DNA of 64,000 nt, taken from assembly GCA_963746115.1 (NCBI GenBank), contig CAVVAA010000004.1, positions 431,218 through 495,217 of the forward strand, written 5' to 3'. Within the stretch, counting starts at the first letter, position 1. Each line of letters begins with the position of its first letter. Positions 11,635 through 52,589 of the stretch are shown piece by piece. A program made the position numbers and the translations under genes. The stretch comes from an uncultured Actinomycetes bacterium (lineage in GTDB: Bacteria; Actinomycetota; Thermoleophilia; Gaiellales; JAICJC01). The notes under the pieces were generated by a model. That model searched no databases. It worked only from the letters and a program-made list of their open reading frames with translations, and had not been told where the DNA came from.

Positions 11635-11658
11635 GGCCAAGCACCCGGCCCTGGCACC
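11635..11658. repeat. Degenerate family-B pair (GGCCAAGCACC-c-GGCCCTGGCACC)
   Basis: Starts 2 nt after the M24 peptidase stop. CTGGCACCGCGAC matches the 47618 copy with its spacer. This copy is diverged. Confidence 0.35.
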
Positions 11659-11765
11659 GCGACTACGCGCCCTCGCCCAAACCGACCAGTCGGCCGGGCA
11701 CCGATGAATTTCAGGGCGGGAGTGGCGTCTGACCCCCAGACGACCCGAGAGCAAGGAGTTCTGAG

Positions 11766-12338
11766 ATGCGGAAGCTGATGGCGTTGGTGTTCCACTACTC
11801 GCTCAACGGCCTTGTGGCCGACGAGGGCACCGAGTACCTCAAGTTCTGCTTCGAGCTGCTCGACGAGGGTGGCGGCCCGAGCGACGATCAGGAGTCCATC
11901 GACTTTCTGCAGGGCGCGGACGCGCACATCATGGGCCGCAACGCGTACGAGGGCATGGCCGCGAGTCTCCCGTCCAACCCCGACCATCCGTGGTCAGACA
12001 TCATGAACGCCGGGCGTAAGGTCGTCTTCTCGCGGACGCTGAAGACGGCCGACTGGGCCAACACCACCATCGCCGCCGGTGACACGACGGAGGAGATCGA
12101 CAAGCTCAGGCAGGGCGGCGACGGCCACATCGTGGTGTGGGGCGGCGTCAGCCTGTGGCGGTCGCTGATGCGGCTCGACCTGATCGACGAGTGGCACCTG
12201 GGCCTACACCCCTACGTTGCCGACGAGGGCACCCTGCTGTTCGACAACGTCCCCAAGTCCTACCGGCTCGATCTGATCTCCAGCACCCCCTTCGGGTCGA
12301 CCGGGGTCCTCGAGCTGCAGTACCGGCGACACCGTTAA
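11766..12338 (+). CDS. Dihydrofolate-reductase-family protein (RibD C-terminal domain type)
   Basis: 190-aa ORF preceded by AAGGAG. MRKLMALVFHYSLNGLVADEG...IMGRNAYEGM...HIVVWGGVSLWRSLMRLDLIDEWHL. Confidence 0.75.
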   Translation: MRKLMALVFHYSLNGLVADEGTEYLKFCFELLDEGGGPSDDQESIDFLQGADAHIMGRNAYEGMAASLPSNPDHPWSDIMNAGRKVVFSRTLKTADWANTTIAAGDTTEEIDKLRQGGDGHIVVWGGVSLWRSLMRLDLIDEWHLGLHPYVADEGTLLFDNVPKSYRLDLISSTPFGSTGVLELQYRRHR

Positions 12339-12406
12339 TCAGCGGACCAGGCCGCAAGGAGGACTGTGATGGAGGGCCTGATCTCCGGTCGCGGTACCCT
12401 GGGCTG

Positions 12407-13191: not shown

Positions 13192-13200
13192 AGCGCGACC

Positions 13201-13233
13201 GGTGCCAGGCACCGCGGCGAGGTGCCAGGCACC
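13201..13233. repeat. Palindromic 13-mer pair, family B (GGTGCCAGGCACC-gcggcga-GGTGCCAGGCACC)
   Basis: Two exact copies 7 nt apart, between the convergent cupin (stop 13191) and fae (stop 13265). Confidence 0.9.
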
Positions 13234-15077: not shown

Positions 15078-15107
15078 GGGGACTGTCCCCGCACGGGGAC
15101 AGTCCCC
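15078..15107. repeat. Palindromic 13-mer pair, family A (GGGGACTGTCCCC-gcac-GGGGACAGTCCCC)
   Basis: Exact copies, between the convergent RCC1 gene (stop 15066) and the MFS gene (stop 15113). Confidence 0.9.
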
Positions 15108-19035: not shown

Positions 19036-19062
19036 GGGGACTGTCCCATGGGGACAGTCCCC
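19036..19062. repeat. Palindromic 13-mer pair, family A (GGGGACTGTCCC-at-GGGGACAGTCCCC; first copy lacks its last C)
   Basis: Between the convergent beta-propeller gene (stop 19022) and the choline-kinase-like gene (stop 19072). Confidence 0.85.
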
Positions 19063-23944: not shown

Positions 23945-25542
23945 GCGACGCCGCGCTCGGGCCCGCCGCGCGCGCCGCGGCGCTCGGGCGGATGCGGGCG
24001 GAGCGGTTCGACCTGCTCGTCGTCGGCGGCGGGATCACCGGCGTCGGCATCGCCCTCGACGCGGCAACGCGCGGCCTGTCGGTCGCCCTCGTCGAGGCGC
24101 ACGACATCGCCGCGGGGACGTCGAGCCGCTCCAGCAAGCTCATCCACGGCGGCCTGCGCTACCTGGAGATGCTCGACTTCGGCCTCGTCCGCGAGGCGCT
24201 GCGCGAGCGCCGGCTGCTGCTGACGACCCTGGCGCCGCACCTCGTCCGTCCCGTGCCGTTCCTGTTCCCGCTGCGGCACCGGCTGTGGGAGCGGCCCTAC
24301 CTGGGCGCCGGGCTTCTGCTCTACGACACCATGGGCGGCGCCCGCCACGTTCCGCGGGCGCAGCACCTGTCGAAGCGGACGGCGCTGCGCTCGGCGCCGG
24401 CGCTGCGCCCGGACTCGCTGGTCGGGGCGGTGCGGTTCCACGACGCGCAGGAGGACGACGCCCTCTTCGCCGTGCACGTCGCCCGCACGGCGGCCGCGCA
24501 CGGCGCCGCGATCGCGACGCGAGCGGCGGTCACGGCGTTCGCGCGCGACGAGCGCGGACGGGTCGCCGGCGCGCGCGTCCGCGACGGCCTCGCCGGCGGC
24601 GAGCTCGACGTGCGCGCTCGCCACACGATCGTCGCCGTCGGCGTTGGCACCGACCGCGTGCTCGAGCTTGCGACCGGAAGCCCGCACCACGCCCTGCGCC
24701 CGTCGAAGGGCGATCCACCTGCTCGTGCCGCGCGCGGCGATCCCGATGCGGACGGGGCTCTTCATGCGCACCGAGAAGAGCATCTTCCACGCCATCCCGT
24801 GGGGCGACGGAGCACTGGCTGCTGGGCGATACGGACACCGAGTGGGACGGCGACGCCGGACGCGCCCGTGGCCAACCGGGCCGACGTCGACTACGTGCTC
24901 GCGAAGGTGAACAGCGTGCTCGTGCGGCCGGTCCAGAAGGCGCAGGTCTGCGGCGTCTACGCGGGCCTGCGCCCGCTCGTCGCGGCCCAGGGGGCGGCGA
25001 CGACGACCCGCCTCTCCCGCGAGCACCGGCTGTTCGCGCCGCTGCCGGGGCTGACCGCGATCGCCGGCGGCAAGTACACCACCTACCGGGTGATGGCCCG
25101 CGATGCGGTCGATGCGGCGGCCCGCGACCTCGGTGGCGCTGCGCCCTCGCGGACGCACGAGGTTCCGCTGGTCGACGCCGCGGGCGAGGTCGACGCGCTG
25201 GTCGCCGCCGACCCGGCGCTGGGGGAGCCGATCGCGGGCACCCGGCACAGGGCCGCCGACGCCGTCCACGCGTGCACGCACGAGGGCGCGCTCGACCTGG
25301 ACGACGTCCTCACCCGGCGGCTGCGGGTCTCGATCGAGGTGCCCGACCGCGGCCGGGCGGCCGCCGCCGAGGTTGCCCCGCTCGTCGCGCCCGCGCTGGA
25401 CTGGTCGGACGCGCGGGTGGCTGACGAGATCGCCCGCTACGTCCGGCTCCGCGACGCCGAGGCTGCCGCCGAGGACGCGCCCGACGACGCCACCGCCCGC
25501 GCACGCTACCGGGCCGTGCTCGGCGCACCAGACGGGGTCTGA
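23941..25542 (+). pseudogene. glpD: Glycerol-3-phosphate dehydrogenase (FAD-dependent, GlpD type), with three +1 frame shifts (~24711, ~24808, ~24852)
   Basis: GTG 23941 overlaps the glpK stop (GTGA). FDLLVVGGGITGVGIALDAATRG...SSRSSKLIHGGLRYL. Middle section RPSKG | IHLLVPRAAIPMRTGLFMRTEKSIFHAIPWGD | HWLLGDTDTEWDGD | ANRADVDYVLAKVN lies in three frames. Start and end share one frame. Confidence 0.8.
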
Positions 25543-25546
25543 CCCC
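25534..25546. repeat. Palindromic 13-mer, family C (GGGGTCTGACCCC), single copy
   Basis: Exact palindrome. Its central TGA (25540-25542) is the glpD stop codon. It lies between convergent glpD and the adhesin-like gene. Confidence 0.7.
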
Positions 25547-25556
25547 ACCTGGCGCG

Positions 25557-28239
25557 TCAGAACATCGTCTGGGTCTTCGTGAACGAGCCGCCCGCCGGGT
25601 TCCCCGCTGGGTCGGTGATCGTCGGCGCCGGCGTGTAGGTGACCGTGACGTTCTTGACGGTGCCGAGGGCGGTGCAGCCGGCACCTGCGCAGGCCCGAAG
25701 ATGCGGGCGGTCAGCGACACCTGAGCGCTCGAGTAGGAGAGCACCGACGACGCCCAGCTCGCGCTCGTGCCGTCGGCGGTCAGGTAGCCGTCGCTACCCA
25801 GATCCAGCGACCCGGCGATGAAGCTCCCGATCGTGAGCGTGTCGTTGCCCGGTCCCGTGGGATCGGTGATCGTGATTGTCGTCGTCGCCGGGATCGACGA
25901 CGGCAGGAGCGACTCGCTCCACTCGGCGTGATCTCGTCGCAGGCCTCGGGAACGCCCGCCGTGTTCACCGTCCCCGCGCAGGCACCCTCGTGTTGTGCTG
26001 GTGGCGGAAGCCGACCGCCACCGGCCCGGCACCGTCGGCCGGGGCGACGCGGCGAAGGACGCGCGGTTCCCGCCCATGTCCTGGATGCTCGTTCCCCGAC
26101 TGCAGCCCGACCTGGAACAGGCTCGACCGCGTGTCGGGCTGATCCGTCCAGGCGCCGATGACGAGCGTCGCGGTGTTCCCGCTGTGCTCACGGACTGCAG
26201 CGACGCCGCCGGGGCACGTTCGGTCAGCGTCCAGCCCTGGCCGTGCAGGGCGCGGCACAGGTGGCCAGCGGCTCGTTGAACGTGACCGCGACCCGGTCGA
26301 CGAAGCCGTCCTCGTCCGTGGTCGAGCATGTCATGCCGGTCAGGCGGGCGGGGTCTTGTCGCCGACCGCCGACGGATCGCGGTCACCGACGTCGCGTGAC
26401 GGAGTTGTTGTTGCCCGACACCGCGTCGAACTGCGTGCCGGCGACGAGGCGGGTTGATCAGCGTCTGCGGCGAGCCGGGCGCCGTCATCGGGATGGTGAT
26501 CGTGACGGAGTCGCCCGAGGTCAGCGCCCCGAGGTTGCAGCTGACGGTCGTCGTGCCGAGCACGACCCGGCCGTCGTGGTGACGCTCCGGCAGCGGAGTC
26601 GTCGGCAGCGTGTCGCGTGAACGTCGCGTCCGGCTCGGGGCCGGGCCGTGGTTGACGACCGTGAGCATGTAGGCGAAGCCGGCGCCCTGGTCGACCTTCG
26701 CGGACACCGCCGTGGAGACGCCGAGGTCGGCGCCGCCGCGCGCGGTGACGGTCGTGGTGGCCGAGGCGGAGTTGTTCGCTCGCGTCCGGGTCGGCCGTCG
26801 TCGACGAGACCGACGCGGTGTTCGCGATCGTGCCCGCGGTGTCGCGGTCGCGGGTGATCGCGACGCTCGCGCCCGGCGGTCTCACGGCACCCAGGGTGCA
26901 GCTCACGGTGCGGCGGGATCGTTGTAGCTGCAGCCAGGCGCGCTCTGCGAACGTGAGGCCGGCGGGGAGGACGTCGGTGACCGTCGTGCCGGCGCGGTGT
27001 CCGGGCCGGCGTTGGCGACGCTTGCCGTGAACGTCACCTGCTCGCCGACGTCCAGGCTCGACGGGGAGCCGGCGAGCGACAGCGAGAGGTCGGCGGAGGC
27101 CGCGGCCGCCGAGTCGGTGAACTGGGCGAAGTTGGCCGCTTCTGATCCTGCACGCGGGTGAAGTCGCCGCCGACGTAGAGCTTGTTGGAGCCCTCCCCGT
27201 CGACTGCGAAGACGCCCAGGAACCCGGCCGTCACGGCGGGCAGCCAGCTCGTGTCCAGGGCGCCGGTGGACGCGTTGGCGCGCACGAGCTGGTTGACCAC
27301 GGTGCTCTTGTACTTGAGGAAGTGGCCGCCGAAGTAGGGGACGTCCGCGAGCACTGCGACCGCCTGGACGTTGCCGTCCGTCGTCTGCTCCCAGACCTTG
27401 GCGCCGGTGGTCAGGCTGACCGCGAGCGCTTTGCCGCCGCTGCCACCACCCCCGCCGTACAGCCGGGTGCTGCCCGGGGCCAGCGCCAGCACGGGGTAGG
27501 TCGGGTGGTAGACGCCGGAGATCGAGGCGCCGGTGGTCGGGTTCACGGCGGTCAGGCTCTTCTGGGACGTGCCGTTGACGGTGGCGAAGTTGCCGGCCAG
27601 ATACAGCCGGGTGGACGTCAGCACGAGCGCGCGCACGAGGTTGTCGGCGCTCGTGGTGAACCCGGGCGTGAACGAGCCGTCGGCGGCGTTCAGCTCGTCG
27701 ACCCGCGACACGGCCGTCTGGCCGATCTTGGTGAACGCGCCGCCGATGTAGACGGTGCTGGGGCCGACGGCGATCGCCCGGATGACGTTGTTCGGCCAGC
27801 CGCCCGTGGGCTTCCACGCGATCAGGGCTCCGGTGGCGGTGTTGAAGACCGCGATCTTCTTCTGCGTCTTGCCGTTCACGGTGTTGAAGTTCCCGCCGAC
27901 GTAGAGGCGGGAGCCGTCCGGCGATGCGGCCAGGGCGAATACCTCGGCGTCCACCGTCGGCGCGAAGCCGGTCGGCTGGCCGGTGGTTGCGTCGATCCCG
28001 GCCAGGTTGGACGCGGGCGCCGTGGCCGTGCTCGCCGTGTCGTCCAGCTCGGTGAACGTCCCGCCGAGGTAGATCGTGCTGCCGACCCGGAGCACGACGT
28101 CGACCTTGCCGTTCGTCCCCCACGTGACGTCGGGGACGAGCGGGAGGGCGGCGACCGCCTGGGATTCGCCCACCGTGAGGAGCGCCATGCCGATTCCGGC
28201 GAGGACGAGCAGGCGGCGGACGCGGCACCTTGTCACCAT
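25557..28239 (-). pseudogene. Large secreted beta-propeller + DUF11-repeat (conserved repeat domain) surface/adhesin-like protein, fragmented over many frames
   Basis: N-terminal MVTRCRVRRLLVLAGIGMALLTVGESQAVA plus propeller repeats (track ORF 27034..28272). Continuations lie in other frames: ADLSLSLAGSPSSLDVGEQVTFTASVANAGPDTA, SCTLGAVRPPGASVAITRDRDTAGTIANTASV, FAYMLTVVNHGP, TTVSCNLGALTSGDSVTITIPMTA. Own translation of the tail: ...GTVKNVTVTYTPAPTITDPAGNPAGGSFTKTQTMF*, with stop at 25557. Confidence 0.65.
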
Positions 28240-30107: not shown

Positions 30108-30141
30108 GGCGGCAACGCTACACCCGCCGACTTCTGCGATG

Positions 30142-30173: not shown

Positions 30174-30187
30174 GGTGCGCCATCGGC

Positions 30188-30233: not shown

Positions 30234-30247
30234 CCGCCGCGATCGGG

Positions 30248-34506: not shown

Positions 34507-34517
34507 GAGGAGGAGTC

Positions 34518-34796: not shown

Positions 34797-34801
34797 CGGG
34801 G

Positions 34802-35443
34802 ATGGAGAACTCCGCAGTCCAGCTGCGGGTCTACCTGCCGATCCCGAGGCTCGGCCGCCAGTTCGCGGCCTATCTGGGGACGCCCACGCGTGCCCGTGGA
34901 TACCCGCCGATCGAGGGCGACCACGCGCTGATCGTCGAGGTGGCGCCGGCGCTCGCGATCGAGCGGGTGACCGACCTCGCGCTGCGGTCGGTGCCGGAGA
35001 TCGAGCCGGGCATCCTCTACGTCGAGCGCCAGTTCGGCGTGCTCGAGGTGCACCACCGGGACAAGGCGCTCGTCGACCGGGCCGGCGCGGCCATCCTCGA
35101 CGGGATCGGGGCGACGGCCGCGGACGCGCTGCGGCCGCGTATCCTCTACGCCGACGTGATCGAGGACATCACCGACCAGCACGCGGTGATCATCAACCGC
35201 AACCGCGAGGCGTCGATGGTGCTGCCGGGCGAGACGCTGCTCGTGTACGAGGTGGTGCCCGCGCTGCACGCCGCCATGGCCGCCAACGCCGCCGAGCGGG
35301 CCGCGCCGGAGGCGACGCTCGTCACCGTCTCGATGATCGGCGCCGCCGGCCGCATCTACATGTCCGGCGACACGGAGAGCGTCGTGCGCGCCCGCGACGA
35401 GATCACGCGCGTGCTCGAGTCGGTGGAGGGCCGTGAGCACTGA
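34802..35443 (+). CDS. BMC shell protein, ~213 aa, tandem-domain (BMC-T-like), paralogue 2
   Basis: 213-aa ORF. YVERQFGVLEVHHRD...INRNREASMVLPGETLLVYEVVPALHAAMAANAAERAA...GAAGRIYMSG. Collinear with 33042..33647. Confidence 0.65.
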   Translation: MENSAVQLRVYLPIPRLGRQFAAYLGTPTRARGYPPIEGDHALIVEVAPALAIERVTDLALRSVPEIEPGILYVERQFGVLEVHHRDKALVDRAGAAILDGIGATAADALRPRILYADVIEDITDQHAVIINRNREASMVLPGETLLVYEVVPALHAAMAANAAERAAPEATLVTVSMIGAAGRIYMSGDTESVVRARDEITRVLESVEGREH

Positions 35444-36419
35444 CCAGGCTGCGATCGACCGCCTGGCCCAGGCCGCGCTGCCCGCGTACGACCTCGACCC
35501 GGCGGCCACGGTCGCCCTGATCAACGTGTCCGAGAACTGGACGTACCGGATCGAGGAGCCGGGCGGCCGCGCGTTCGCGCTGCGCGTCCACCGGCCGACG
35601 TACCACACGGCCGAGGAGATCGCCTCGGAGCTCGACTGGATCGACGCGCTGCGCGATGACGGCGTGGTGGAGACGGCGCATGCCGTCGCCGGCCGGGGCG
35701 GGGACCGCGTCTGCCAGGTGCGCACCGACGAGCTCGGCGAGCGCAACGTCGTGCTGTTCGACTGGCTCGCGGGCGAGATGCCCGACGCCGACGCGCACGA
35801 CCTCATGCCCGGGTTCCGCACGCTCGGCGCCGTCTCGGCCCGGATGCACCGCCATTCCCGCAGCTGGGCGCCGCCGTCGGGGTTCGCCCGCTTCCGCTGG
35901 GAGTACGACACGACGCTCGGCGCGAACGGCCACTGGGGCCGGTGGCAGGACGGCCTCGGGATGGGATCGGAGGAGCTCGCGCTGCTCGGCCGGCTCGACG
36001 CCACGCTACGGCAACGGCTCGACGCCTACGGCCAGGGGGCCGAGCGGTTCGGCCTCGTCCATGCCGACATCCGCCTCGCCAACCTGCTCGTCGACGGCGA
36101 GCACGTGCGCGTGATCGACTTCGACGACTGCGGCTGGTCGTGGTTCATGTACGACTTCGCCACGACCGTGTCGTTCATCGAGGACCACCCGGACGTGCCC
36201 CGGCTGAAGGCCGCCTGGGTGGAGGGCTACCGCTCCGCCGCCGAGCTCGACCCGGCCGACGAGGCCGAGCTGGACACCTTCGTCATGCTGCGCCGGCTCC
36301 TGCTCGTGGCCTGGATCGGCTCGCACCACCAGTTCGCCACCGAGGCCGCCGAGCTCGGCGCCGGATTCACCGCCGGCACCTGCGCGCTCGCCGAGCGGTA
36401 CCTCTCCGCATACGGCTGA
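35433..36419 (+). CDS. APH-fold phosphotransferase. In RMM-type loci this is the 1-amino-2-propanol kinase.
   Basis: 328-aa ORF with GTG start, overlapping the upstream gene by 11 nt. INVSENWTYRIE...FGLVHADIRLANLLVDGEHVRVIDFDDCGW. Confidence 0.82.
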   Translation: MSTDQAAIDRLAQAALPAYDLDPAATVALINVSENWTYRIEEPGGRAFALRVHRPTYHTAEEIASELDWIDALRDDGVVETAHAVAGRGGDRVCQVRTDELGERNVVLFDWLAGEMPDADAHDLMPGFRTLGAVSARMHRHSRSWAPPSGFARFRWEYDTTLGANGHWGRWQDGLGMGSEELALLGRLDATLRQRLDAYGQGAERFGLVHADIRLANLLVDGEHVRVIDFDDCGWSWFMYDFATTVSFIEDHPDVPRLKAAWVEGYRSAAELDPADEAELDTFVMLRRLLLVAWIGSHHQFATEAAELGAGFTAGTCALAERYLSAYG

Positions 36420-36424
36420 GCCGG

Positions 36425-36772
36425 CTACTTGATGCTGACCACGAGCCGCAGGCGACCCGCATGTGGGACGTGGATCACGTGTGGCACGGTCACCGGTGGT
36501 AGGCCGCCCGTCCTGATGCTGACCGTGTACGTCCCGGGAGCCACGTCGAAGGCGAACCGGCCCTGTCGGTCGGTGCGGACGTCGGCCGACTCGCCATCAC
36601 CCTCGATCTCCAGGCGCACACCGGGCATCGCGACCGGCCCGCCCGCTGCAGGGCCGCCGATGCGCACGAGCGTGCCGTGCGTGTGGACCGGCCTGGAGCT
36701 CGCGGTCGATCCGCTTCCACATGCGGAGACGAGGAGGACGGCGAGCAGCACGACCGCGCGGGACCAATTCAT
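36425..36772 (-). CDS. Small lipoprotein with carboxypeptidase-regulatory-like (Ig-like beta-sandwich) domain
   Basis: Last 115 codons of track ORF 36425..37972(-), from ATG 36772. MNWSRAVVLLAVLLVSACGSG (lipobox LVSAC). VRLEIEGDGESADVRTDRQGRFAFDVAPGTYTVSI. Confidence 0.6.
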   Translation of the reverse strand: MNWSRAVVLLAVLLVSACGSGSTASSRPVHTHGTLVRIGGPAAGGPVAMPGVRLEIEGDGESADVRTDRQGRFAFDVAPGTYTVSIRTGGLPPVTVPHVIHVPHAGRLRLVVSIK

Positions 36773-36791
36773 GGCATTTGGACCGTAGAAT
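36761..36791 (+). promoter_or_regulatory. Candidate operator/promoter upstream of the SDR-GntR genes: everted GGACCA (36761-36766) / TGGACC (36779-36784), then -10-like TAGAAT (36786-36791)
   Basis: Same everted GACCA...TGG(A/T)C arrangement as at 30188-30218. Sits in a 54-bp divergent gap. Confidence 0.25.
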
Positions 36792-36826
36792 GGGCCGCCC
36801 GGTTCCACCGATCGCACGAGGAGGAG

Positions 36827-37612
36827 ATGATGTTCACCCCACTCACCGGCCGGACGGTGCTCGTCACCGGCGGCACCAAGGGCATCGGCAAGGGCATCGC
36901 GGGCGAGTTCGCAGCTGCGGGCTGCAACGTCGCCCTGAGCGGCCGCGGCGAACATGCCGGCGAGCAGGCGGTGCTCGACCTCGAAGCGCGCGGCGGCCAC
37001 GTCTCCTTCTACAAGGGCGACGTCGCCAGGGCCGACGACTGCGAGCGGGTGGCGTCCGAGGTCGCCTCGCGCTACGGCGGCATCGACATCGTCTGCGCCA
37101 ACGCCGGCGTCTTCCCCGACGTCAAGCTGGCGGACATGACCGAGGACGACATCGACACGATCTTCGCGACCAACGTCAAGGGCACCATGCTGACGGTGAA
37201 GGCCTGCCTGCCCCACCTGGAGCGCTCCGGCCACGGCCGGGTGATCCTGACGAGCTCGATCACCGGCCCGATCACCGGGTTCCCGGGCTGGTCGCACTAC
37301 GGCGCGACGAAGGCGGCCCAGCTCGGCTTTCTGCGCACCGCCTGCATCGAGCTCGCGCCGAAGCGGATCACGGTGAACGCCGTCCTGCCGGGCAACGTCG
37401 AGTCGGAGGGGATGGACGAGCTCGGCCCCGAGTACCGGGCATCGATGGAGGCGTCGATCCCGCTCGGCCGCCTCGGCTACCCGTCGGAGATCGGGGCGGC
37501 GGCGGTGTTCCTGGCGACCGACGAGGCGGGCTACATCACCGGCCAGACCATCGTGGTCGACGGCGGCCAGATACAGCCCGAGTCGCTGGCCGCGCTCGAG
37601 GCCGCCCGGTAG
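36827..37612 (+). CDS. Short-chain dehydrogenase/reductase (FabG-like). In RMM-type loci this is the aminopropanol/aminoacetone dehydrogenase.
   Basis: ATG 36827 after GAGGAGGAG, within track ORF 36677..37612. VLVTGGTKGIGKGIA...NAGV...SSITG...YGATKAA. Confidence 0.88.
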   Translation: MMFTPLTGRTVLVTGGTKGIGKGIAGEFAAAGCNVALSGRGEHAGEQAVLDLEARGGHVSFYKGDVARADDCERVASEVASRYGGIDIVCANAGVFPDVKLADMTEDDIDTIFATNVKGTMLTVKACLPHLERSGHGRVILTSSITGPITGFPGWSHYGATKAAQLGFLRTACIELAPKRITVNAVLPGNVESEGMDELGPEYRASMEASIPLGRLGYPSEIGAAAVFLATDEAGYITGQTIVVDGGQIQPESLAALEAAR

Positions 37613-37619
37613 GGGCGCC

Positions 37620-38414
37620 GTGACCGAGCCCGTCCCCGGACTGCCCGCCGCCTTCGCGCCGCTCGGGCCGGCGGCGGCGGGCCTGCGCGACCGCCTCGCC
37701 GCCGAGATCGAGTCCGGCGCGCCAGGCCCGGGCGAGCGCCTGGGCGCCGAGCGCGAGCTCGCCGCCCGGCTGGGGGTGAGCCGCTCGACGCTGCGCGCCG
37801 CCCTGGATGCGCTCGAGACGGCGGGGGTCGTGCACCGCGTCCGCGGCCGGTCGGGCGGCATCTTCGTCTCGGAGCGGCGGGTCGAGCGCGACCTGACGAG
37901 CCTCACCAGCCTGCCGGCGTACATGCGCCGCCAGGGGTTCCAGTCCGGCGCCCGCGTGCTCTCGACGGCCACGGTCGGCGCCGACGCCGAGGCAGCCGCG
38001 GCCCTCGACGTGCCCGAGGGCGCGCTCGTGCTCGAGGTCGTCCGCGTCCGCCTCGCCGACGAGCAGCCGATCTCGCTCGAGCGGGCCCGCTTCCCCGCCG
38101 ACCGTTTCCCCGGGCTGCTCGACCGCTCGCTGTCGGGATCGCTGTACGAGCTGCTCGAGTCCGGCTACGGCCTGCGCCCGAGCGAGGCCGAGGAGCGGGT
38201 CGAGGTGGTCGGCGCGACGGCCGCCGAGGCCCGCGTGCTCGAGGTGCGCGCGGGCGCGCCGCTGGTGTCGATCGCCCGCACGGCCTGGTCGGAGGACGGC
38301 CGCCCGTTCGAGCGCTCGAACGACCTGTTCCGGGCCGACCGGGTGCGCATCGTCGTGCGCGTGCGCACGCGCGACCCGCATTCGCTGGGAAGCGCCGTCG
38401 AGGTCGTCCGCTAG
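37620..38414 (+). CDS. GntR-family transcriptional regulator, HutC subfamily (UTRA effector domain)
   Basis: 264-aa ORF. GERLGAERELAARLGVSRSTLRAALDALETAGVVHRVRGRSGGIFV, followed by a UTRA-like C-terminal half. Confidence 0.85.
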   Translation: MTEPVPGLPAAFAPLGPAAAGLRDRLAAEIESGAPGPGERLGAERELAARLGVSRSTLRAALDALETAGVVHRVRGRSGGIFVSERRVERDLTSLTSLPAYMRRQGFQSGARVLSTATVGADAEAAAALDVPEGALVLEVVRVRLADEQPISLERARFPADRFPGLLDRSLSGSLYELLESGYGLRPSEAEERVEVVGATAAEARVLEVRAGAPLVSIARTAWSEDGRPFERSNDLFRADRVRIVVRVRTRDPHSLGSAVEVVR

Positions 38415-38425
38415 CAGGGGCGTGG

Positions 38426-38923
38426 GTGGTGACCGAGTTACAGCAACTGCGAGCCGACCATGCAGTGGCGGTTCTCGCCTTCGAGCTGGCAAACCGCGCG
38501 TACTTCGCTGCGTCGATCTCCGACCGGGGCGATGCGTTCTTTGACGAGTTCACCGCACGGCACCGCGCCCTGCTGGACGAGCAGGACGCCGGCATCGGCG
38601 CGTTCTACGTGCTCGTCGCCGAAGATGGCTCGGTCCTGGGCCGGTTCAACCTGGTCTTTGTCGACCATGGGACGGCGGAGCTCGGGTACCGGGTCGCGCA
38701 GCACGTCGCCGGACGCGGCGTGGCGACAGAGACCGTGCGGGAACTCTGCCGGCTGGCCGCGACCCGTCACGGCCTGCGGAGGCTCAGGGCAGCCACCGCC
38801 TGTGAGAATGTCGCCTCCCGGAAGGTGCTGGCCAACGCCGGGTTCGTCGCGGTCGGCCCGGCCGATCCAGCCGACATCGGCGGAAAGCCGGGCACCTGGT
38901 ACGAGCGCGCCATCGCTGAATAA
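38426..38923 (+). CDS. GNAT-family N-acetyltransferase (RimJ/RimL-like)
   Basis: 165-aa ORF. ELGYRVAQHVAGRGVATETVRELCRLA...RLRAATACENVASRKVLANAGF. Confidence 0.8.
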   Translation: MVTELQQLRADHAVAVLAFELANRAYFAASISDRGDAFFDEFTARHRALLDEQDAGIGAFYVLVAEDGSVLGRFNLVFVDHGTAELGYRVAQHVAGRGVATETVRELCRLAATRHGLRRLRAATACENVASRKVLANAGFVAVGPADPADIGGKPGTWYERAIAE

Positions 38924-38949
38924 ACGGGGTCTGACCCCGTTTATTCAGC
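38915..38949. terminator. Extended family-C palindrome (35-nt perfect inverted repeat around GGGGTCTGACCCC), a putative bidirectional terminator hairpin
   Basis: GCTGAATAAACGGGGTC-T-GACCCCGTTTATTCAGC. The TAA stop of the GNAT gene (38921-38923) lies inside the left arm. There is no obvious U-tract. Confidence 0.55.
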
Positions 38950-39070
38950 TGGGGGGCGCCAGGCGGCCTGGGAGCGGGCCACGCAGCAGGAGCGGCCGAC
39001 GCGGCAGATGAGCCGGTCGAGCGTGCGCAGGATGCGGGCGGCGGTCGCCATCCGTCCACGGTAGCCCAAA

Positions 39071-40045
39071 GTGCCATACTCCCCGGAAGCGATGGCCGAG
39101 CACGTCATCACCCGCGACGCGCCCACCCACCGCAGCTGGGACGTGGACACGGAGCCGGTCGTGCGGATCCGGCCCGGCGACGTCGTCACCGCCGAGACCG
39201 ACGACTTCGCGGGCGGCCAGATCACCCGCACCTCCACCGCGGCCGACCTGCCCCGGCTCGACTTCGACCTGATCTACCCGCTCGCCGGGCCGATCTACGT
39301 CGAAGGCGCCGAGCCCGGCGACGCGGTCGCGATCGAGTTCCTCGAGTTCGAGCTCCCCGAGTGGGGCTGGGCCTGCATCATCCCCGGCCTCGGGCTGCTC
39401 CCGCCGGGCGAGTTCACCGATCCGTACATCAAGTTCTTCGACCTGACCGGCGGCGCCGAGATGGACTTCGCGCCCGGCGTGCGCCTGCCGATCGAGCCGT
39501 TCTGCGGCACGACGGGGGTGCCCGGCGCCGGGATGCACGGCGTGCCCATCCCGCCGCCGCACGCCGGTGGCGGCAACATCGACTGCCGCCACCTGACGAA
39601 GGGGACGACGCTGTACCTGCCCGTCGGCGCGCCGGGCGCGCTCGTCTCGCTGGGCGACGCCCACGCCGCCCAGGGCGACGGCGAGGTGGCGATCTCCGGC
39701 GTCGAGTGCGCGATGCGGACGACGCTGCGGATCACCGTCGAGCGGGGCATGAACCTGCGCGCCCCGGCGCTGCGGCGGCGGCCCGGTCCGCTGACTCCGC
39801 GCGTCGACCGCGGCGGCTGGTTCGCGACGACCGGCGTCGAGCCCGACCTGATGGAGGCGTCCCGCTCGGCCGTCCGCGCGATGATCGAGCACCTGGTCGC
39901 ACGCCGCGGCCTCACACGTGAGGACGCTTACATGTTGTGCTCGCTTGCGGGTGATCTGAAGGTCACCGAGGTCGTCGATGCGCCAAACTGGATGGTGGGC
40001 TGCTTCATGCCCGACGCGGTGTTCACCAACCAGGAGGTCGCGTGA
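39071..40045 (+). CDS. Acetamidase/formamidase-family amidohydrolase
   Basis: 324-aa ORF. PLAGPIYVEGAEPGDAVAIEFLE...WGWACIIPGLGLL...GGNIDCRHLTKGTTLYLPV...LVSLGDAHAAQGDGEV. Confidence 0.85.
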   Translation: MPYSPEAMAEHVITRDAPTHRSWDVDTEPVVRIRPGDVVTAETDDFAGGQITRTSTAADLPRLDFDLIYPLAGPIYVEGAEPGDAVAIEFLEFELPEWGWACIIPGLGLLPPGEFTDPYIKFFDLTGGAEMDFAPGVRLPIEPFCGTTGVPGAGMHGVPIPPPHAGGGNIDCRHLTKGTTLYLPVGAPGALVSLGDAHAAQGDGEVAISGVECAMRTTLRITVERGMNLRAPALRRRPGPLTPRVDRGGWFATTGVEPDLMEASRSAVRAMIEHLVARRGLTREDAYMLCSLAGDLKVTEVVDAPNWMVGCFMPDAVFTNQEVA

Positions 40046-46316: not shown

Positions 46317-47610
46317 ATGAAGACTGACGCCGTCGACGCGGCCCTGGCCGAGCTGGCCCGGTTCCCGCTCCTCGACTCGCTCTACGGCCGCCGCTCGCGC
46401 CGCTTCCCGATGGGCGGCAGCATCCCCGACGGCCCGCTCGCCTATGCCTCGCAGCACGAGCACGTCCCCCTGAGCGAGCTCGAGACGCTGCTCATCCTGA
46501 CCGCCATGGCGGGCACGACCGGGTGGCACTACGGCATCACCCGCCACGCCCGCTACGCGCCGCACTTCGCCAACTACAACGGCGCCGCCGCCGGCCGCAC
46601 CATCCCCTCGGCGGCCGGGTTCCACACGAGCGAGCTCTTCTACACCGACGACTCCGGCCTCTACTACTTTCCGACCCGCGACGCCGGCGCCCTGGTCGAC
46701 CCGGCCGAGGAGGAGATCACGCCGGCGCTCATGATCGAGCGCCACCGCGACCGGATCGTGAAGCTCTCGGGCGAGCGTCTGCACCTGCCCCGCGAGGAGC
46801 CCTACCTCGAGGGCCACAACACCTGGATCGCGAACGAGCCCGGCTCGCTCCTCGCCATCCCGGTCGCCGACATCGCCCAGCACCACATCGCCAACATCTG
46901 CTTCTTCACCCAGAACGGCTTCTGCCTGGTCGACGACCTGCACGGCCGCCCGATCCCGGGGATCGAGCAGTTCGAGGGCCTCGTCGACACGACGCAGCCC
47001 GTGCCGCTCTCGTTCGTCGAGCAGTACTCGCTCACCGAGGCGACCGCCGAGCTCATGGTGTCGAGCTACAACGGCGCGCTGCTGCTCCAGGCGATGGGCC
47101 TCGGCGGCTGGTCGTACGACGGGATCGAGCACATGGCGCTCCTGGGCGCGTCGGGCGAGCCGGACGTGCCCGGCCTGGGCTTCCGCTTCGACACCGACCC
47201 GCGCTGGGGCACGCCCAACCCGACCGGGCGCACCGACGGCACCTTCCACGCGTTCTGCCCACCGCACTTCCCGACGATGGCCGCCGCGGTCGAGGCGTTC
47301 GCCGAGCGCAAGTTCGGCCCCGGCGGGCCGTACCACCCGGACACGCCCGGGGCGTGGACCGAGTCGTCGGCGATCCGGGCATCGGCGGAGCCATATTCGG
47401 AGGAGTTCAAGGCGTGCGTGACGCTCCAGTGCGACTACACGCTCGAGACGTGGGGCAAGTTCCCCGGCACCGTCCCCAGCGTGTGGGTGATGAACGTGCT
47501 CCAGGCGCAGCACCTCGACCTCGATTTCTACGACCGGTTCTTCCGGCCGGGCGCCGTCCTCGACACGCACCGGCGCCACTTCGACGTCTGGCACCGCAGA
47601 CGACGGGTGA
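46317..47610 (+). CDS. Conserved-looking protein of unknown function (~430 aa), possibly nitroreductase/SagB-like fold. The 3' end is unresolved.
   Basis: ATG 46317. LYGRRSRRFPMGG (an RRSxRxF-type motif). The track ORF runs on to 48515 through the family-B repeat and the next gene. A TGA at 47608-47610 lies in the +1 frame just before the repeat, so the listed end is provisional. Confidence 0.5.
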
Positions 47611-47617
47611 GAGGGCC

Positions 47618-47650
47618 GGTGCCTGGCACCGCGACGCGGTGCCAGGCACC
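47618..47650. repeat. Palindromic 13-mer pair, family B (GGTGCCTGGCACC-gcgacgc-GGTGCCAGGCACC)
   Basis: Exact copies 7 nt apart, between co-directional genes, 15 nt upstream of GTG 47665. Confidence 0.9.
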
Positions 47651-47664
47651 TGTAGAGTCGGGCC

Positions 47665-48783
47665 GTGGGAGGCACGGCGATCGCGCGGGTCGAGGTCTAC
47701 GGCTACGAGCTGACGTACGTCGGCGAGGAGTACGTGATGTCGGGCGGGCGCTCGATCGCGTCGCTCGACTCGACGGTCGTGCGCGTGGTCACCGAGGACG
47801 GGGTCGAGGGCTACGGCGAGACGTGCCCGCTCGGGAGCACCTATCTGGCCGCGCACGCCGAGGGCGCGCGGGCCGCGCTGCGCGAGCTCGCGCCCGCGGT
47901 GGTCGGTGCCGACCCGGCCGGGTTCCTCGCCCTCGGCGACCGCATGGACGCCGCCCTGACCGGGCACGAGTACGCCAAGAGCGCGATCGATGTCGCCTGC
48001 TGGGATGCGGCCGCCCGCGCCCAGGGCGTCTCGGTGACGACCCTCCTCGGCGGCCTCCGCAACGAGTCGTTCCCGCTCTACGTCGCGATCCCGCTCGGAG
48101 ACCCGGCGGCGATGGCCGACCACGTCGCGGCGCTGCGGGCCGAGGGCATCACGCGGTTCCAGCTCAAGGTCGGGGACAGTCCCCGGGTCGACGCCGAGCG
48201 CGTCCGGGCGGTGCTCCCCAGGTGCGGGCCGGACGACGTCGTGATCGCCGATGCGAACGGGCGCTACACGACGCAGGAGGGCGTCGCGGCCGTCGGCCTG
48301 CTGGCAGGGCTCGACCGCGTGTACGTCGAGCAGCCCTGCCCCACGCTCGAGGCCTGCCGGTACGTGCGCGAGCGCTCGGCGCTCCCGTTCGTCCTCGACG
48401 AGTGCATCTCCGACGTCCCGTCGCTCGTGCGCGCGCACGACGCGCGGGCGATGGAGGCGTTCAACCTCAAGATCTCGAAAGTGGGCGGTCTGACAAAGGC
48501 ACGCCAGATGCGTGACCTGGCCGACGCGCTCGGCCTCTCGGTCACGATCGAGGACACGTGGGGCGGCGATCTCGTGACGGCGGCCGTTTCGCACCTTGCG
48601 GCCAGCACGAGGGCACGTACGCTCTTCACGGTGTCGTTCATGAACGACTGGACCAACGAGCACGTGGCCGGGTACGAGCCCCGGTCTTCGGCTGGGCGCG
48701 GGTCGGCGCCGGCCGGCCCCGGGCTGGGGGTCGACGTGGATCTGGGCAGGTTGGGGGCGCCACTCTGGAGCACTGCGGAATGA
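47665..48783 (+). CDS. Enolase-superfamily enzyme (mandelate racemase / muconate lactonizing enzyme family)
   Basis: 372-aa ORF. KSAIDVACWD...FQLKVG...ADANGRYT...YVEQPC...LDECI...FNLKISKVGGLT. Confidence 0.88.
   Translation: MGGTAIARVEVYGYELTYVGEEYVMSGGRSIASLDSTVVRVVTEDGVEGYGETCPLGSTYLAAHAEGARAALRELAPAVVGADPAGFLALGDRMDAALTGHEYAKSAIDVACWDAAARAQGVSVTTLLGGLRNESFPLYVAIPLGDPAAMADHVAALRAEGITRFQLKVGDSPRVDAERVRAVLPRCGPDDVVIADANGRYTTQEGVAAVGLLAGLDRVYVEQPCPTLEACRYVRERSALPFVLDECISDVPSLVRAHDARAMEAFNLKISKVGGLTKARQMRDLADALGLSVTIEDTWGGDLVTAAVSHLAASTRARTLFTVSFMNDWTNEHVAGYEPRSSAGRGSAPAGPGLGVDVDLGRLGAPLWSTAE
48172..48184. repeat. Single family-A 13-mer (GGGGACAGTCCCC) inside the enolase-superfamily CDS
   Basis: Exact match, translated as GDSP in KVGDSPRVD. 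May be coincidental because it is unpaired. Confidence 0.35.
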
Positions 48784-49798: not shown

Positions 49799-49803
49799 CC
49801 CGG

Positions 49804-50616
49804 CTAAGCGGCGTCGAACAGCAGCCGGTCGAGGCCGCGCACGAGCCCGGCCCGCTCGCGGACGCGGCGGGCGGCGAGCAGCGAGCCGGCCACGAAGATG
49901 GCGGAGTCGCCCTGCTCGTCATGGCGGAGGATCAGGCGTTCGCCCGGCAGCCCGAACACGACCTCGACGGCGGGATTCGATCCGGCCAGCCGCACCGAGT
50001 GCACCCGGGCGCCGCCGATCTCGGCGCCGCGCGCCTCCGGTGGGCCGACCGGCTCGGCGACCGCCGGCGTGGGCTCGCCGGCGCGCTCGTGCGCGAGCAG
50101 CTCGGCCAGCTCCCGGGCGGTGCCGCTGGGCGCGTCCGGCTTGGCGGCCGAGCCGTACTCGATGATCTCCCAGTCGGGGACGTGCCGGGCCGCGAAGCGG
50201 GCCAGGTGCTGCATCAGCGCCGCGGTGACCGAGAAGTTGCCGGTCGCCACGCCGACGCCGGCGGCGCGGGCGGCGGCGTCGATCCGGTCGAAGTCCGCGT
50301 CCGTGAGGCCGGTCGTCCCGATCACCACCGGCACCGATCGCTCGAGGGCGAGGTCGACGTTGCGGCGGACGACTGCCGGGTGCGTGTAGTCGATCAGGAC
50401 GTCGGGGCGGCGGTCGAGGGCGCGGGCGAGGTCGTCCTCGACCGCGACGCCGACGGGCGCGCCGAGCACGACCTCGCCGACGTCGCGCCCGATCTCGCGC
50501 CGGGCGACGGCCGAATGCAGCCGGTACCCGGCGGTGGCGACGACCCCGGCGACGAGCTCGCGGCCGACGGCGCCGAGGGCACCCGAGACACAGACCTCGA
50601 TGTCGCGACCCGTCAC
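49804..50616 (-). CDS. Dihydrodipicolinate-reductase (DapB)-like NAD(P)-binding protein with an atypical active-site motif
   Basis: Track ORF 49804..50766 trimmed to GTG 50616. VCVSGALGAVGREL...VIGTTGLT...EIIEYGSAAKPDAPSGTA. Canonical DapB has E-x-H-H-x-x-K-x-DAPSGTA; here the His-His pair is Tyr-Gly. Confidence 0.65.
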   Translation of the reverse strand: MTGRDIEVCVSGALGAVGRELVAGVVATAGYRLHSAVARREIGRDVGEVVLGAPVGVAVEDDLARALDRRPDVLIDYTHPAVVRRNVDLALERSVPVVIGTTGLTDADFDRIDAAARAAGVGVATGNFSVTAALMQHLARFAARHVPDWEIIEYGSAAKPDAPSGTARELAELLAHERAGEPTPAVAEPVGPPEARGAEIGGARVHSVRLAGSNPAVEVVFGLPGERLILRHDEQGDSAIFVAGSLLAARRVRERAGLVRGLDRLLFDAA

Positions 50617-50687
50617 CGGCGCGGATGGTACCCGGGGACGTGATCGTTGCCCGCGCGCCTCGGCGGGAGAAGCCGTACACTCGGGGC

Positions 50688-52559
50688 ATGCTGAGTGTGC
50701 AGGCCACGCCGCCCGCCCATGTCGATGCGCGGCCGGCGATCGTCCGGGTGGCCTGCCCCCGGACACGGCCCCTGGGCGAGTGCGGGTTCCTGCGCGTCCC
50801 GCTCAACCGCCGCCACCCGAACGGGCGCACGATCCGGATCTACTTCGAGCGCTACTTCCGCACGCAGCGGTCGCGGCCGCAGACGTCGACGGTGCTCTCG
50901 ATCGAGGGCGGCCCCGGGTTCTCGACCACCGCCGACCGGGCGGCGCGCCTGCAGCTCTGGCGGCCCGTCTCGGCCCGTCGCGACCTGCTGCTCGTCGACC
51001 TGCGCGGCACGGGCCGCTCGGGCGCGCTCAACTGCCCGGCGTTTCGGCGCCACATCCTGCCGTACGTCGTCCGCGCCGGCCGGTGTGCGGCCCAGATCGG
51101 GCCGAAGCGGGACGACTACGACACCTCGCAGTCCGTGCAGGACCTGAGGGCCGTGGTCGCCGCGCTCGGCATCCACCGCCTCGACGTGTACGGCGACTCG
51201 TACGGGTCGTACGCCGCGCAGGCGTTCGCGATCCGATATCCGCACCTGCTGCGCTCCCTCGTCCTCGACGGCACCTACCAGCTGCCCGGGTCAGACCCCG
51301 CGCTGGCCGACCTCGCCGAGAGCACGCAGAGCTCGCTGCGGCTGGCATGCGAGCGCCGCCCGGGCTGCCCCGCCGGCCGCCATCCGCTGGCCCTGCTCGG
51401 CAGGCTCCTGCGGCAGGTGCGCCGCCACCCGATCGTGGGCACGGCCCCCGACGCCGACGGGACGATGACCCACGTCCGCGCCGATCCCGACACGCTCGGG
51501 CAGCTCGTCCAGTCCGGCTTCTACTACCAGGGCGTGTGGCGCGACATCTTCGCTGCCACGCGCTCCGCCTTCGCCGGGGACACGCAGCCGCTGCTCCGGC
51601 TCGTCGCCGAGACCGAGACGACCGACGGCCCGAACGGGGACCCGCGCGAGTTCACCGAGTCGCTCTACCTGTCGGTGATCTGCCACGACTATCCCGAGCT
51701 GTGGCCGATGGGGACGCCCGTCTCCCAGCGCGCGCCCTTCATCCGCTCCGCGCTCGCCGCCTACCCGCCGGGGACGTTCGCGCCGTTCACCGCGAAGGAG
51801 TGGACCGGGCTCGACTACGAGGGCGCGCTCGCGTGTCTGAACTGGCCGCCGGCCGCGTTCCCCGACCCGCCGGTCTCGCCGTCGGCGCCATACCCCCACG
51901 TGCCGACGCTGATCCTGAACGGCGACCTCGACAACATCACGCCGCTCGCCGACGCCCGCGTCGTCGCGTCGCGGTTCCCCGACAGCACGCTCGTGGTCAT
52001 GCAGAACAGCGGCCACGTCACCGCGCTCCTCGACCAGAACGACTGCGCGTCGCTGATCTACGAGCGCTTCGTGCGCGATCGAAGCCCGGGCGACACGTCC
52101 TGCGCCCACCGCACGCCCGAGGTGCGGGTGGTGCCGTCGTTCCCGCTCACGCTCGCGGGGATGGCTGCCGCGCATCGCTCTCCGGGCGACCAGTCGACCC
52201 TGAACGACCGCCGCATCGCCGCTGCGAGCGCGTCCGCGGTCGCCGATGTGCTGCAGCGGTGGTGGGCGAACCTGAGCGGCAGCGGGGTCGGCCTGCGCGG
52301 CGGCCGCTGGTCCTACTCGGGGGGCGACCTGACCACCTTCACCCTCCACGACGTCGCCTTCGTCCCCGGCGTGAAGGTGAGCGGCACCGTCCGCTGGCGC
52401 TACTCCACCGGCCGTGTGCGCGCGACCGTGGTCACCCGTGCCGGCGGCACGGTCGAGCGGCTGCGGATGGCGTGGTCGCTGCAGGTGCGCGCGGCCCGCG
52501 GGCGGCTGGTCGGCAGCGAGGGCGGCCGCACGCTGCGCCTGCACATGCTCGCCCCCTGA
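50688..52559 (+). CDS. Alpha/beta hydrolase (tripeptidyl-aminopeptidase/TAP-like)
   Basis: ATG 50688 within track ORF 50625..52559. SIEGGPGFS...nucleophile elbow VYGDSYGSY...NGDLDNITP...NSGHV. Confidence 0.75.
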   Translation: MLSVQATPPAHVDARPAIVRVACPRTRPLGECGFLRVPLNRRHPNGRTIRIYFERYFRTQRSRPQTSTVLSIEGGPGFSTTADRAARLQLWRPVSARRDLLLVDLRGTGRSGALNCPAFRRHILPYVVRAGRCAAQIGPKRDDYDTSQSVQDLRAVVAALGIHRLDVYGDSYGSYAAQAFAIRYPHLLRSLVLDGTYQLPGSDPALADLAESTQSSLRLACERRPGCPAGRHPLALLGRLLRQVRRHPIVGTAPDADGTMTHVRADPDTLGQLVQSGFYYQGVWRDIFAATRSAFAGDTQPLLRLVAETETTDGPNGDPREFTESLYLSVICHDYPELWPMGTPVSQRAPFIRSALAAYPPGTFAPFTAKEWTGLDYEGALACLNWPPAAFPDPPVSPSAPYPHVPTLILNGDLDNITPLADARVVASRFPDSTLVVMQNSGHVTALLDQNDCASLIYERFVRDRSPGDTSCAHRTPEVRVVPSFPLTLAGMAAAHRSPGDQSTLNDRRIAAASASAVADVLQRWWANLSGSGVGLRGGRWSYSGGDLTTFTLHDVAFVPGVKVSGTVRWRYSTGRVRATVVTRAGGTVERLRMAWSLQVRAARGRLVGSEGGRTLRLHMLAP

Positions 52560-52589
52560 ATACACGGGGTCTGACCCCGGTTATTCGGG
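52555..52589. terminator. Extended family-C palindrome (imperfect copy of the 38915 element), a putative bidirectional terminator hairpin
   Basis: CCTGAATACACGGGGTC-T-GACCCCGGTTATTCGGG. Contains the TGA stop of the hydrolase (52557-52559) and the TAA stop of the convergent kinase (tta 52581-52583). Confidence 0.55.

Follow-up and report, generated by a model that had tools for sequence, protein, structure and literature searches.

Palindromes in the window

The stretch considered here, 64,000 nt of contig CAVVAA010000004.1 from an uncultured Actinomycetes bacterium (hereafter the window, meaning the whole of these 64 kb), carries three families of 13-nt palindromes, A (GGGGACWGTCCCC), B (GGTGCCWGGCACC) and C (GGGGTCWGACCCC), which share the skeleton GGNGNC-W-GNCNCC and occur as six doublets and four singles. 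Genes were called from codon-position G+C content and checked with Pfam; the sites lie among them as follows, with z denoting the folding score relative to shuffled sequences.

11635 to 11736: degenerate B-like copy (11635) and one-mismatch C-like copy (11724) between co-directional genes; z -0.95
13201 to 13233: B doublet, GGTGCCAGGCACC-GCGGCGA-GGTGCCAGGCACC, between convergent cupin (plus strand) and Fae-like (minus strand) genes; hairpin of -31.8 kcal/mol, z -4.1
15078 to 15107: A doublet, a T-centred unit, GCAC and an A-centred unit, forming a perfect 13-bp stem between convergent RCC1-repeat (plus) and MFS (minus) genes; z -4.8
19036 to 19062: A doublet with a 1-nt spacer, its first unit bearing one mismatch (...CCCA), between convergent genes
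25534 to 25546: C single, forming the tip of a longer hairpin that spans about 25520 to 25558
30142 to 30173: B doublet in the divergent region between a DAO oxidoreductase gene (minus) and a class-III aminotransferase gene (plus)
33758 to 33787: A doublet of 30 nt, in frame within the coding sequence (CDS) 33644 to 34270
38915 to 38949: perfect 35-nt palindrome, GCTGAATAAAC-[C unit 38926 to 38938]-GTTTATTCAGC, 3' of a GNAT gene and 5' of a formamidase gene; z -7.0
47596 to 47662: apparent 67-nt insertion with a B doublet (47618 to 47650), between a 429-aa gene and a cis-3-hydroxyproline-dehydratase-like gene
48172 to 48184: A single within the cis-3-hydroxyproline-dehydratase-like CDS, coding for VGDSPR
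52558 to 52586: palindrome, GAATACAC-[C unit 52566 to 52578]-GGTTATTC, between convergent hydrolase (plus) and PAS histidine kinase (minus) genes

The three families had been described in an earlier note on this DNA, and their positions are borne out, with five to seven matches for each family against roughly 0.25 expected. Units were counted with at most one mismatch and compared with 100 dinucleotide-preserving shuffles of the window. Family A gave seven matches against 0.25 expected (the highest count in any single shuffle being 1), family B six, all exact, against 0.23, and family C five against 0.28, three of them exact (25534, 38926 and 52566) and two with one mismatch (11724 and 51287). 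None of these counts was attained by any shuffle.

Such units might nevertheless be chance or compositional products of a 73% G+C genome rich in short G+C palindromes. Perfect palindromes whose arms reach at least 6 bases (odd) or 7 (even) do number about 99 in the window, which has 72-76% G+C, and the single inside a CDS at 48172, which arises without any change in length, may be a coincidence; yet each family exceeds the shuffle expectation more than 20-fold, recurrence among those palindromes is limited to A, B and C, whose copies lie nearly all outside genes, and the same units occur in genomes of 40% G+C. At the scale of the window chance is refuted, and we give it next to no weight.

The doublets are built to a common plan. 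Those of family A (15078/15095, 19036/19050 and 33758/33775) have spacers of 4, 1 and 4 nt and centres in the order T/A, T/A and A/T, and those of family B (13201/13221, 30142/30161 and 47618/47638) have spacers of 7, 6 and 7 nt and centres in the order A/A, T/A and T/A; the spacing is thus 1-7 nt rather than the 2-7 nt given earlier, the 19036 spacer being a single nucleotide. Five of the six doublets, those with complementary centres, are perfect inverted repeats with a 13-bp stem, and the C units stand singly at the apex of longer palindromes. The B doublets are 91-97% identical over 33-35 nt, spacer included, and past the unit borders no extended match was found between window copies.

Folded in silico, all nine genuine sites form very stable hairpins (z = -3.1 to -7.0 relative to shuffles). 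The degenerate copies that had been added to family B do not hold up: the region 11620-11760 folds no better than shuffles (z = -0.95), its two copies being possibly decayed remnants and not significant alone, and at 33795 the copy owes its right half to ancestral coding sequence common to relatives. Searches of Rfam at the gathering threshold and at E<=5 returned no match at any site.

Position relative to genes

Eight of the ten sites are extragenic and biased towards gene 3' ends. Convergent junctions hold five of them (13201, 15078, 19036, 25534 and 52566), not six as previously counted; 38926 and 47618 lie between co-directional genes, 30142 is divergent, and the 33758 doublet and the 48172 single are inside CDSs. 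Several contexts had been assigned wrongly: 33758 falls in a CDS, and 47618 lies outside any divergent promoter region. Three sites lie away from the ends of transcription units.

Some copies are interwoven with the genes that they adjoin. The C unit at 25534 contains the TGA stop codon of the upstream DAO-family gene, whose C-terminus is four codons longer than in the related locus L121 (loci from other genomes are cited by L numbers), and the palindrome around 52566 encloses the stop codons of both convergent genes. The doublet at 33758 encodes ten residues in a linker past the encapsulation-peptide-like amphipathic N-terminal helix of a microcompartment-associated protein. The single at 48172, where the dehydratase has the same length as its orthologues, is probably a coding coincidence.

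This placement invites the view that the repeats are plain intrinsic, mostly bidirectional terminators that evolved in place, their common stem being convergent because some hairpins terminate especially well. Besides the five sites at convergent junctions, two more lie 3' of a gene; the hairpins are very stable; and the C singles, which enclose both stop codons, have A-rich and U-rich flanks (GAAUAAAC...GUUUAUUC) with UUUAUU-like tails, as read by eye. A consensus terminator scan of 11-31 kb did select 19036, the only site at which it located a U-tract; most copies want one, and others lie where termination would be harmful or pointless, in a CDS, between translationally coupled genes or in a divergent promoter region. 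We consider this explanation unlikely, for reasons that also include the recurrence and turnover described below.

Recurrence in other phyla

A scan for the A doublet with one genome per species yielded at least 119 loci. Among the matches listed, it occurs in Planctomycetota, Omnitrophota (40% G+C), Actinomycetes, Thermoleophilia, Gaiella, Coriobacteriia, Patescibacteria, Saccharibacteria, Aminicenantes, Acidobacteriota, Binatia, WOR-3, Nitrospira, Myxococcaceae, several Proteobacteria and others. These same matches show a unit centre of W in 340 units and S in 6, and C units, for which no selection was made, accompany the A doublets (12 in 8 loci). Sequences adjoining the doublets are often mutually complementary yet locus-specific, with A-runs and T-runs in low-G+C genomes. 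Doublets in this set are enriched at the ends of open reading frames (ORFs), 31% being in convergent positions vs 7% of random positions. No match was found in 2.9 million viral contigs, and BLAST against 72,556 plasmids gave one partial 18-nt match only.

For in-place terminators this record cuts both ways. Low-G+C genomes do set A doublets between A-runs and T-runs at ORF ends, as a terminator would require; selection for a hairpin, however, leaves unexplained why the arms are themselves palindromic, why the centre is so strictly W among the matches listed, why just three stems are used and why the doublet is absent from the viral contigs.

Several loci carry more elaborate arrangements. In an actinomycete metagenome-assembled genome (MAG; OY969568.1), locus L058 has a tandem array at 4420-4860 that repeats every 50 nt or so. 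Its copies, about nine in number, each consist of an A doublet, decayed in some of them, and an invariant spacer of 21 nt, and they fill a region of about 500 nt that appears by eye to be divergent and intergenic. An Allosphingosinicella MAG (L085, 1529-1685) has nine A units in an 18-nt tandem period with GGTAG before each, so that the unit there is GTAG-tagged as in classical repetitive extragenic palindromic (REP) sequences; in genomes other than that of the window, GTAG adjoins only some A copies, such as those of this array. Coriobacteriia MAGs show triple or longer arrangements (L024 4411-4465, L061 3061-3115 and L100 2062-2180), in which the 8-nt spacers are themselves inverted repeats, giving palindromes of at least 55 nt with an A unit at the apex. 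In actinomycete and Thermoleophilia loci (L002, L018, L053, L058, L063, L069 and L078), many A doublets are preceded by a stop codon and GA(A/G)AAGC, which resembles the A-rich prefix of transposase terminal inverted repeats (TIRs; AAAAG-GGGG...); the 67-nt insert of the window has a similar prefix, TGAGAGGGCC.

Other identities for the motif were tried and set aside. A sequencing adapter or assembly artefact was dropped because the motif turns up in an isolate genome and in assemblies made independently from Illumina and from long reads. A restriction or methylation motif (CCWGG core in B, BsmFI/BanI-like half-sites) was dropped, as the cores are not alike among the three families and the sites arose by insertion rather than substitution; a lox/FRT-like recombination site was dropped for its variable spacing (1 to 9 nt), and an FtsK/KOPS, parS or matS-like chromosome site for the wrong sequence and the sporadic taxonomic distribution. 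In the full-text literature, the exact 13-mers and 11-mers matched only unrelated eukaryotic or viral primers.

Turnover between relatives

Comparison with close relatives shows that the sites are not fixed. For the class-III aminotransferase (30248-31540), the best homologues come from MAGs that bear the labels Gaiellales, Thermoleophilia, Solirubrobacterales or Actinomycetota, and the source of the window is taken to be a Thermoleophilia/Gaiellales-like actinobacterium. Two of the loci, L120 and L121, are syntenic with the window over 19-42 kb at 83-89% DNA identity, synteny with L120 beginning directly past the 19036 doublet, and neither contains any of the five sites that the window has in this interval, even with two edits allowed. 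These repeats are thus lacking at equivalent junctions in close relatives, a further point against terminators evolved in place. In L123, whose aminotransferase is 97% identical, the 30142 B doublet is replaced by a 63-nt C doublet element (GGGGTCAGACCCC-GAACGG...CCGTTC-GGGGTCTGACCCC), and elements of this type are also found in other Thermoleophilia and actinomycete MAGs (L018, L062 and L087).

At 47618 the dehydratase gene and the gene upstream overlap by 4 nt in L125, L126 and L127 (...TGGCACCCGTGA...), whereas the window has 67 extra nucleotides with the B doublet; by parsimony, the stretch at 47596-47662 is best taken as an insertion in the window lineage. The upstream 429-aa gene is 93.6% identical to its L126 orthologue, and the frame plot supports it; as assembled, the insertion removes its native stop codon. 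Without that stop, the gene runs out of frame through gene 47 to 48515 (46317-48515), which would reflect either a gene that is genuinely read through or has become a pseudogene, or an error of 1 nt in the assembly near 47595-47610.

Exchange is seen as well. At the hydrolase/PAS-kinase junction the flanks TGAATAxxC...GGTTATTCA are conserved, and the unit at the apex belongs to family C in the window and in L127 but to family B in L126. The GNAT gene together with its C hairpin (about 38409-39075) is an indel vs L120 and L121, and L126 has, in the corresponding position ahead of the formamidase gene, an M29 peptidase and then a B unit; the repeats therefore mark a junction of variable gene content. 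Within the dehydratase, the window (48172) and L127 (10508), whose proteins are 83% identical, have the exact A 13-mer at identical codons, one of them AGT, a rare serine codon; the 13-mer is found neither in the closer L125 nor in L126, and shared ancestry, convergence or conversion could account for it. Orthologous loci for 13201 and 15078 were sought through homologues of the RCC1-repeat gene, and none was close (best about 50% identity). To judge from these alignments, A, B and C elements come, go and replace one another over the times in which species or genera diverge, as expected of dispersed mobile repeats but not of conserved operators.

That contrast bears on a second alternative, in which the units are operators of a host dimeric DNA-binding regulator or nucleoid-associated protein and the doublets serve cooperative binding. 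Like recognition sites, the units are perfect 13-bp dyads that share a skeleton and covary at positions 3/11 and 5/9, the doublet spacers are short, one doublet lies in a divergent promoter region, and some Y1 transposases of the subclass discussed below (TnpA-REP subclass 2.1) carry C-terminal helix-turn-helix domains (Quentin et al., 2018; PMC6006769). The copies, however, lie mostly at gene 3' ends rather than at promoters; the promoter-region copy itself (30142) is missing in L120 and L121 and belongs to another family in L123; units of different families swap at one site; and an identical site recurs in many phyla, which can hardly be expected to have a single host regulator in common. 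The 13-mers may or may not be dimeric protein-binding sites, as the earlier note had suggested, but the lack of conservation at orthologous positions makes an operator for a conserved transcription factor unlikely, and we regard operators in general as quite improbable.

The relatives provide some context for the genes themselves. Pfam supports a DAO oxidoreductase, the class-III aminotransferase and a BMC-domain shell protein in 28935-38414, to which the syntenic loci L120-L122 add aldehyde dehydrogenase, EutN and further BMC proteins, and L122 additionally an APH-family kinase, an SDR and a GntR/UTRA regulator; this is presumably a bacterial microcompartment locus of the aminoacetone/aminopropanol (RMM-like) type. 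Gene calls in L120 and L121 are broken into many short ORFs where L122 and the window have single genes, which suggests frameshift errors typical of long-read assemblies, and the window itself may carry a few.

Association with Y1 transposase genes

All-against-all clustering of the ORFs in the A-doublet loci listed gave generic families as its largest clusters (ABC ATPases, short-chain dehydrogenases and response regulators). A cluster from three loci proved to be a Y1 transposase, identified only after a tblastn search with E. coli RayT (L128), which matched four of the 119 loci listed; a hidden Markov model (HMM) built from 79 homologues confirmed exactly the same four. Pfam Y1_Tnp was confirmed in three of them (L027, L041 and L042), L004 resting on tblastn and the HMM only. 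The proteins align with the HUH, WQ and Y..NP motifs and also with a WSS motif, and the best NCBIfam match of the A-flanked proteins tested is 'REP-associated tyrosine transposase' (RAYT; NF047646) at 66-79.7 bits. The search for RAYT or IS200-type TnpA genes that the earlier note had suggested was therefore fruitful, as RAYT-like Y1 genes are flanked by the same 13-mers in other genomes.

In L027 and L041, A units stand on both sides of the Y1 gene, and in L042 the gene lies between 29-nt palindromes (GGGGACAYGTACC..GGTACRTGTCCCC). A wider sample of 80 metagenomic loci encoding relatives of these proteins contains two further A-flanked genes (L149 and L188) and one with a C unit 83 nt upstream (L167). 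Among the A-doublet loci listed, no recurrent neighbour other than the Y1 transposase gene was found, which speaks against operators of a host regulator, and identical units around transposase genes are likewise not what terminators evolved in place would predict.

TIRYT genes encode HUH Y1 tyrosine transposases of RAYT group 1, or TnpA-REP subclass 2.1; RAYT group 1 is reportedly the designation of Bertels et al. 2017. A TIRYT is defined as a RAYT-like gene flanked by TIRs, within a 'TIRtron', and many TIRYT TIRs have GGGGWSAS in common (Di Nocera et al., 2013; PMC3733652). Around the homologues sampled here, GGGGWSAS reaches 1.54 per kb within 300 nt of the gene vs 0.37 per kb elsewhere. TIRs of at least 11 nt were found in 52 of the homologue loci, about 50-100 nt upstream, with cores that include GGGGTCAGGCTAC, GGGGACAGGCTAC, GGGGTCAGATCC, GGGGACACCATAC, GGTGTCAGGTACC and GGTGTCAGGAACC and that usually begin GGGGWCAG or GGTGTCAGG. 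The type of core tracks protein similarity: mean identity is 0.63 within a type vs 0.42 between types, and the nearest neighbour has the same core type in 22 of 34 cases. Some Y1 homologues are flanked by other REP-like hairpins (L150 68-90 and 791-851, L133 3180-3235), for example AAAAAGGGGCCGTACCCCTTTTT, which occurs also as a 61-nt doublet; the Y1 family therefore has many cognate repeat types.

Set beside these cores (GGKGNCAG..., published as GGGGWSAS), the units of the window read as their self-complementary form. Families A and C are each GGGGWSAS followed by its own complement, as the A-centred readings GGGGACAG... (A) and GGGGTCAG... (C) fit the motif, and family B is in this view a fully paired version of the GGTGTCAGGTACC type. 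If each unit is a TIR core joined to its own complement, both the common GGNGNC-W-GNCNCC skeleton and the identity of units across phyla would be accounted for.

Proposed origin and significance

We propose that A, B and C are REP-like repeats of the TIRYT type, akin to REPINs (doublets of REP units), that a single-copy Y1 transposase moves them and that they probably double as terminators; we put the probability of this reading at about 65%. The source genome presumably encodes such a transposase outside the window, and by analogy with TnpA-REP and IS200/IS605 enzymes it would recognise the units as small hairpins in single-stranded DNA, possibly also as duplex sites, and copy or move singles and doublets around the chromosome. 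Copies would survive where they do little harm, mainly just 3' of stop codons and especially at convergent junctions, occasionally in frame in a disordered protein linker or between the genes of an operon. Once resident, G+C-rich stems of 13-17 bp would probably act as bidirectional transcription stops or as protectors of mRNA 3' ends, and in several cases the elements would also supply stop codons.

A number of observations weigh against this account. By the HMM, no Y1 transposase gene was found in the 64-kb window, in its syntenic relatives or in any actinobacterial A-doublet locus listed, which leaves only an indirect link to this genome. Exact A, B or C flanks are missing around most of the 80 transposase homologues. 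Family B is a weak point in particular, being tied to the transposase only by resemblance: it was never seen to flank a Y1 gene, and its sequence (GGTGCCAG) is outside GGGGWSAS, though similar to the GGTGTCAGGTACC TIRs of homologues. Of 159 doublets counted across phyla among the matches listed, 105 are direct (same-centre) and 54 inverted. At the window copies, neither consistent target-site duplications nor consistent shared flanks were found, and no cleavage tetranucleotide such as GTAG or CGTC adjoins the units. The 67-nt insert at 47618 has unique flanks, and arrival by recombination instead of transposition is therefore possible. To our knowledge, there is no enzymology of any TIRYT.

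A broader version, which we offer tentatively and hold to be somewhat doubtful, would make the units of 13 nt or doublets of about 30 nt the minimal replicating units of a cross-phylum REPIN-like system, including GGGGACWGTCCCC and its relatives, that is serviced by group-1 RAYTs/TIRYTs, a group reported as REP-less. A, B and C would then be specificity classes that coexist and are exchangeable at a given site, and the system would routinely supply gene ends with a ready-made 'stop codon plus bidirectional terminator' in Actinomycetota, Planctomycetota, Omnitrophota, Patescibacteria and others.

If the proposed origin in transposase-borne repeats is right, a substantial part of the gene-end hairpins in this little-studied soil actinobacterial lineage, and in many uncultured phyla, are copies of a transposase-recognised motif and not home-grown terminators. 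This would matter for terminator prediction, operon calling and the assembly of repeat-rich intergenic DNA, and would provide markers of recent genome change. The widespread and functionally obscure TIRYT/RAYT group-1 transposases would gain a clear and very short candidate substrate, a 13-mer so easily synthesised that binding and cleavage assays are simple, and REPIN-type within-genome replicators would extend well beyond Proteobacteria. For specialists, the interest may lie in extremely short units that stay constant across phyla, in three unit types that coexist and swap, and in the link to a transposase subclass reported as REP-less.

Comparison with known systems

REP sequences, the bacterial interspersed mosaic elements (BIMEs) formed from them and REPINs are said to be mobilised by RAYTs in E. 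coli and Pseudomonas, in work by Nunvar (2010), Bertels and Rainey (2011) and Ton-Hoang (2012). Like them, the repeats described here are short extragenic palindromes, often in inverted doublets that fold as one long hairpin; they concentrate 3' of genes, vary among close relatives and, in other genomes, flank a cognate Y1 gene. The earlier reading of the architecture as REP/BIME-like is supported by this flanking and by the insertion polymorphism between close relatives; classical features such as the GTAG tag are absent. Indeed, the window units have neither a GTAG nor a CGTC tag; they are perfect and 13 nt long, compared with 20-40 nt and imperfect for REPs and BIMEs; their spacers are 1-7 nt instead of tens of nt; direct-centre doublets outnumber inverted ones across phyla, among the matches listed, unlike in REPINs; and the transposase scores slightly below the equivalog cut-off for RAYTs (80 bits).

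Three other kinds of element were compared. The in-frame linker doublet at 33758 recalls Rickettsia palindromic elements and the intragenic REPs listed by Di Nocera et al., yet the Rickettsia elements are 100-150 nt long and CGTC-tagged, whereas the insert here measures 30 nt and the copies mostly lie outside genes. Bidirectional intrinsic terminators share the G+C-rich hairpins at convergent junctions and the A-rich and U-rich flanks of the C singles; the repeats differ in being discrete repeated stems with palindromic arms, mostly lacking a U-tract, with some copies in coding sequence or inside operons. Miniature inverted-repeat transposable elements, which have TIRs and a target-site duplication, measure 70-300 bp and derive from insertion sequences, were rejected as a match: the elements are 13-35 nt long and have no consistent duplication and no extended similarity.

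The closest likeness is to TIRYTs. Most of these belong to TnpA-REP subclass 2.1, which corresponds to Bertels' RAYT group 1 and is marked by NH[YF]H, W[EQ], Y..NP, an SS tail and a broad taxonomic range; near its genes, REP-like sequences were not found by Quentin et al. (2018; PMC6006769). The proteins found here carry the subclass 2.1 motifs, and so widespread a subclass fits the spread of the 13-mers across phyla. The earlier note had recognised no described family in these sequences, but A and C units open with the published TIR motif GGGGWSAS (PMC3733652; PMC6006769), and units flank Y1 genes about 50-100 nt upstream and about 15-90 nt downstream (L027, L041, L149, L188 and L167). Some TIRYT TIR families are moderately abundant, in dimers or clusters, and one is self-complementary (PMC3733652); singles, dimers and clusters are seen here too, the window having doublets and singles and L058, L085 and L100 having arrays. 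There are differences: the unit is a 13-nt perfect palindrome, in effect two fused TIR tips; about 10 sites per 64 kb looks denser than 'moderately abundant' families, for which PMC3733652 states no density per kb that could be compared; the window has three families side by side, with swapping at one site; and family B (GGTGCC) departs from GGGGWSAS. On balance, the repeats are best filed as another example of the known class of REP and TIR repeats tied to Y1 transposases rather than as a new kind of system.

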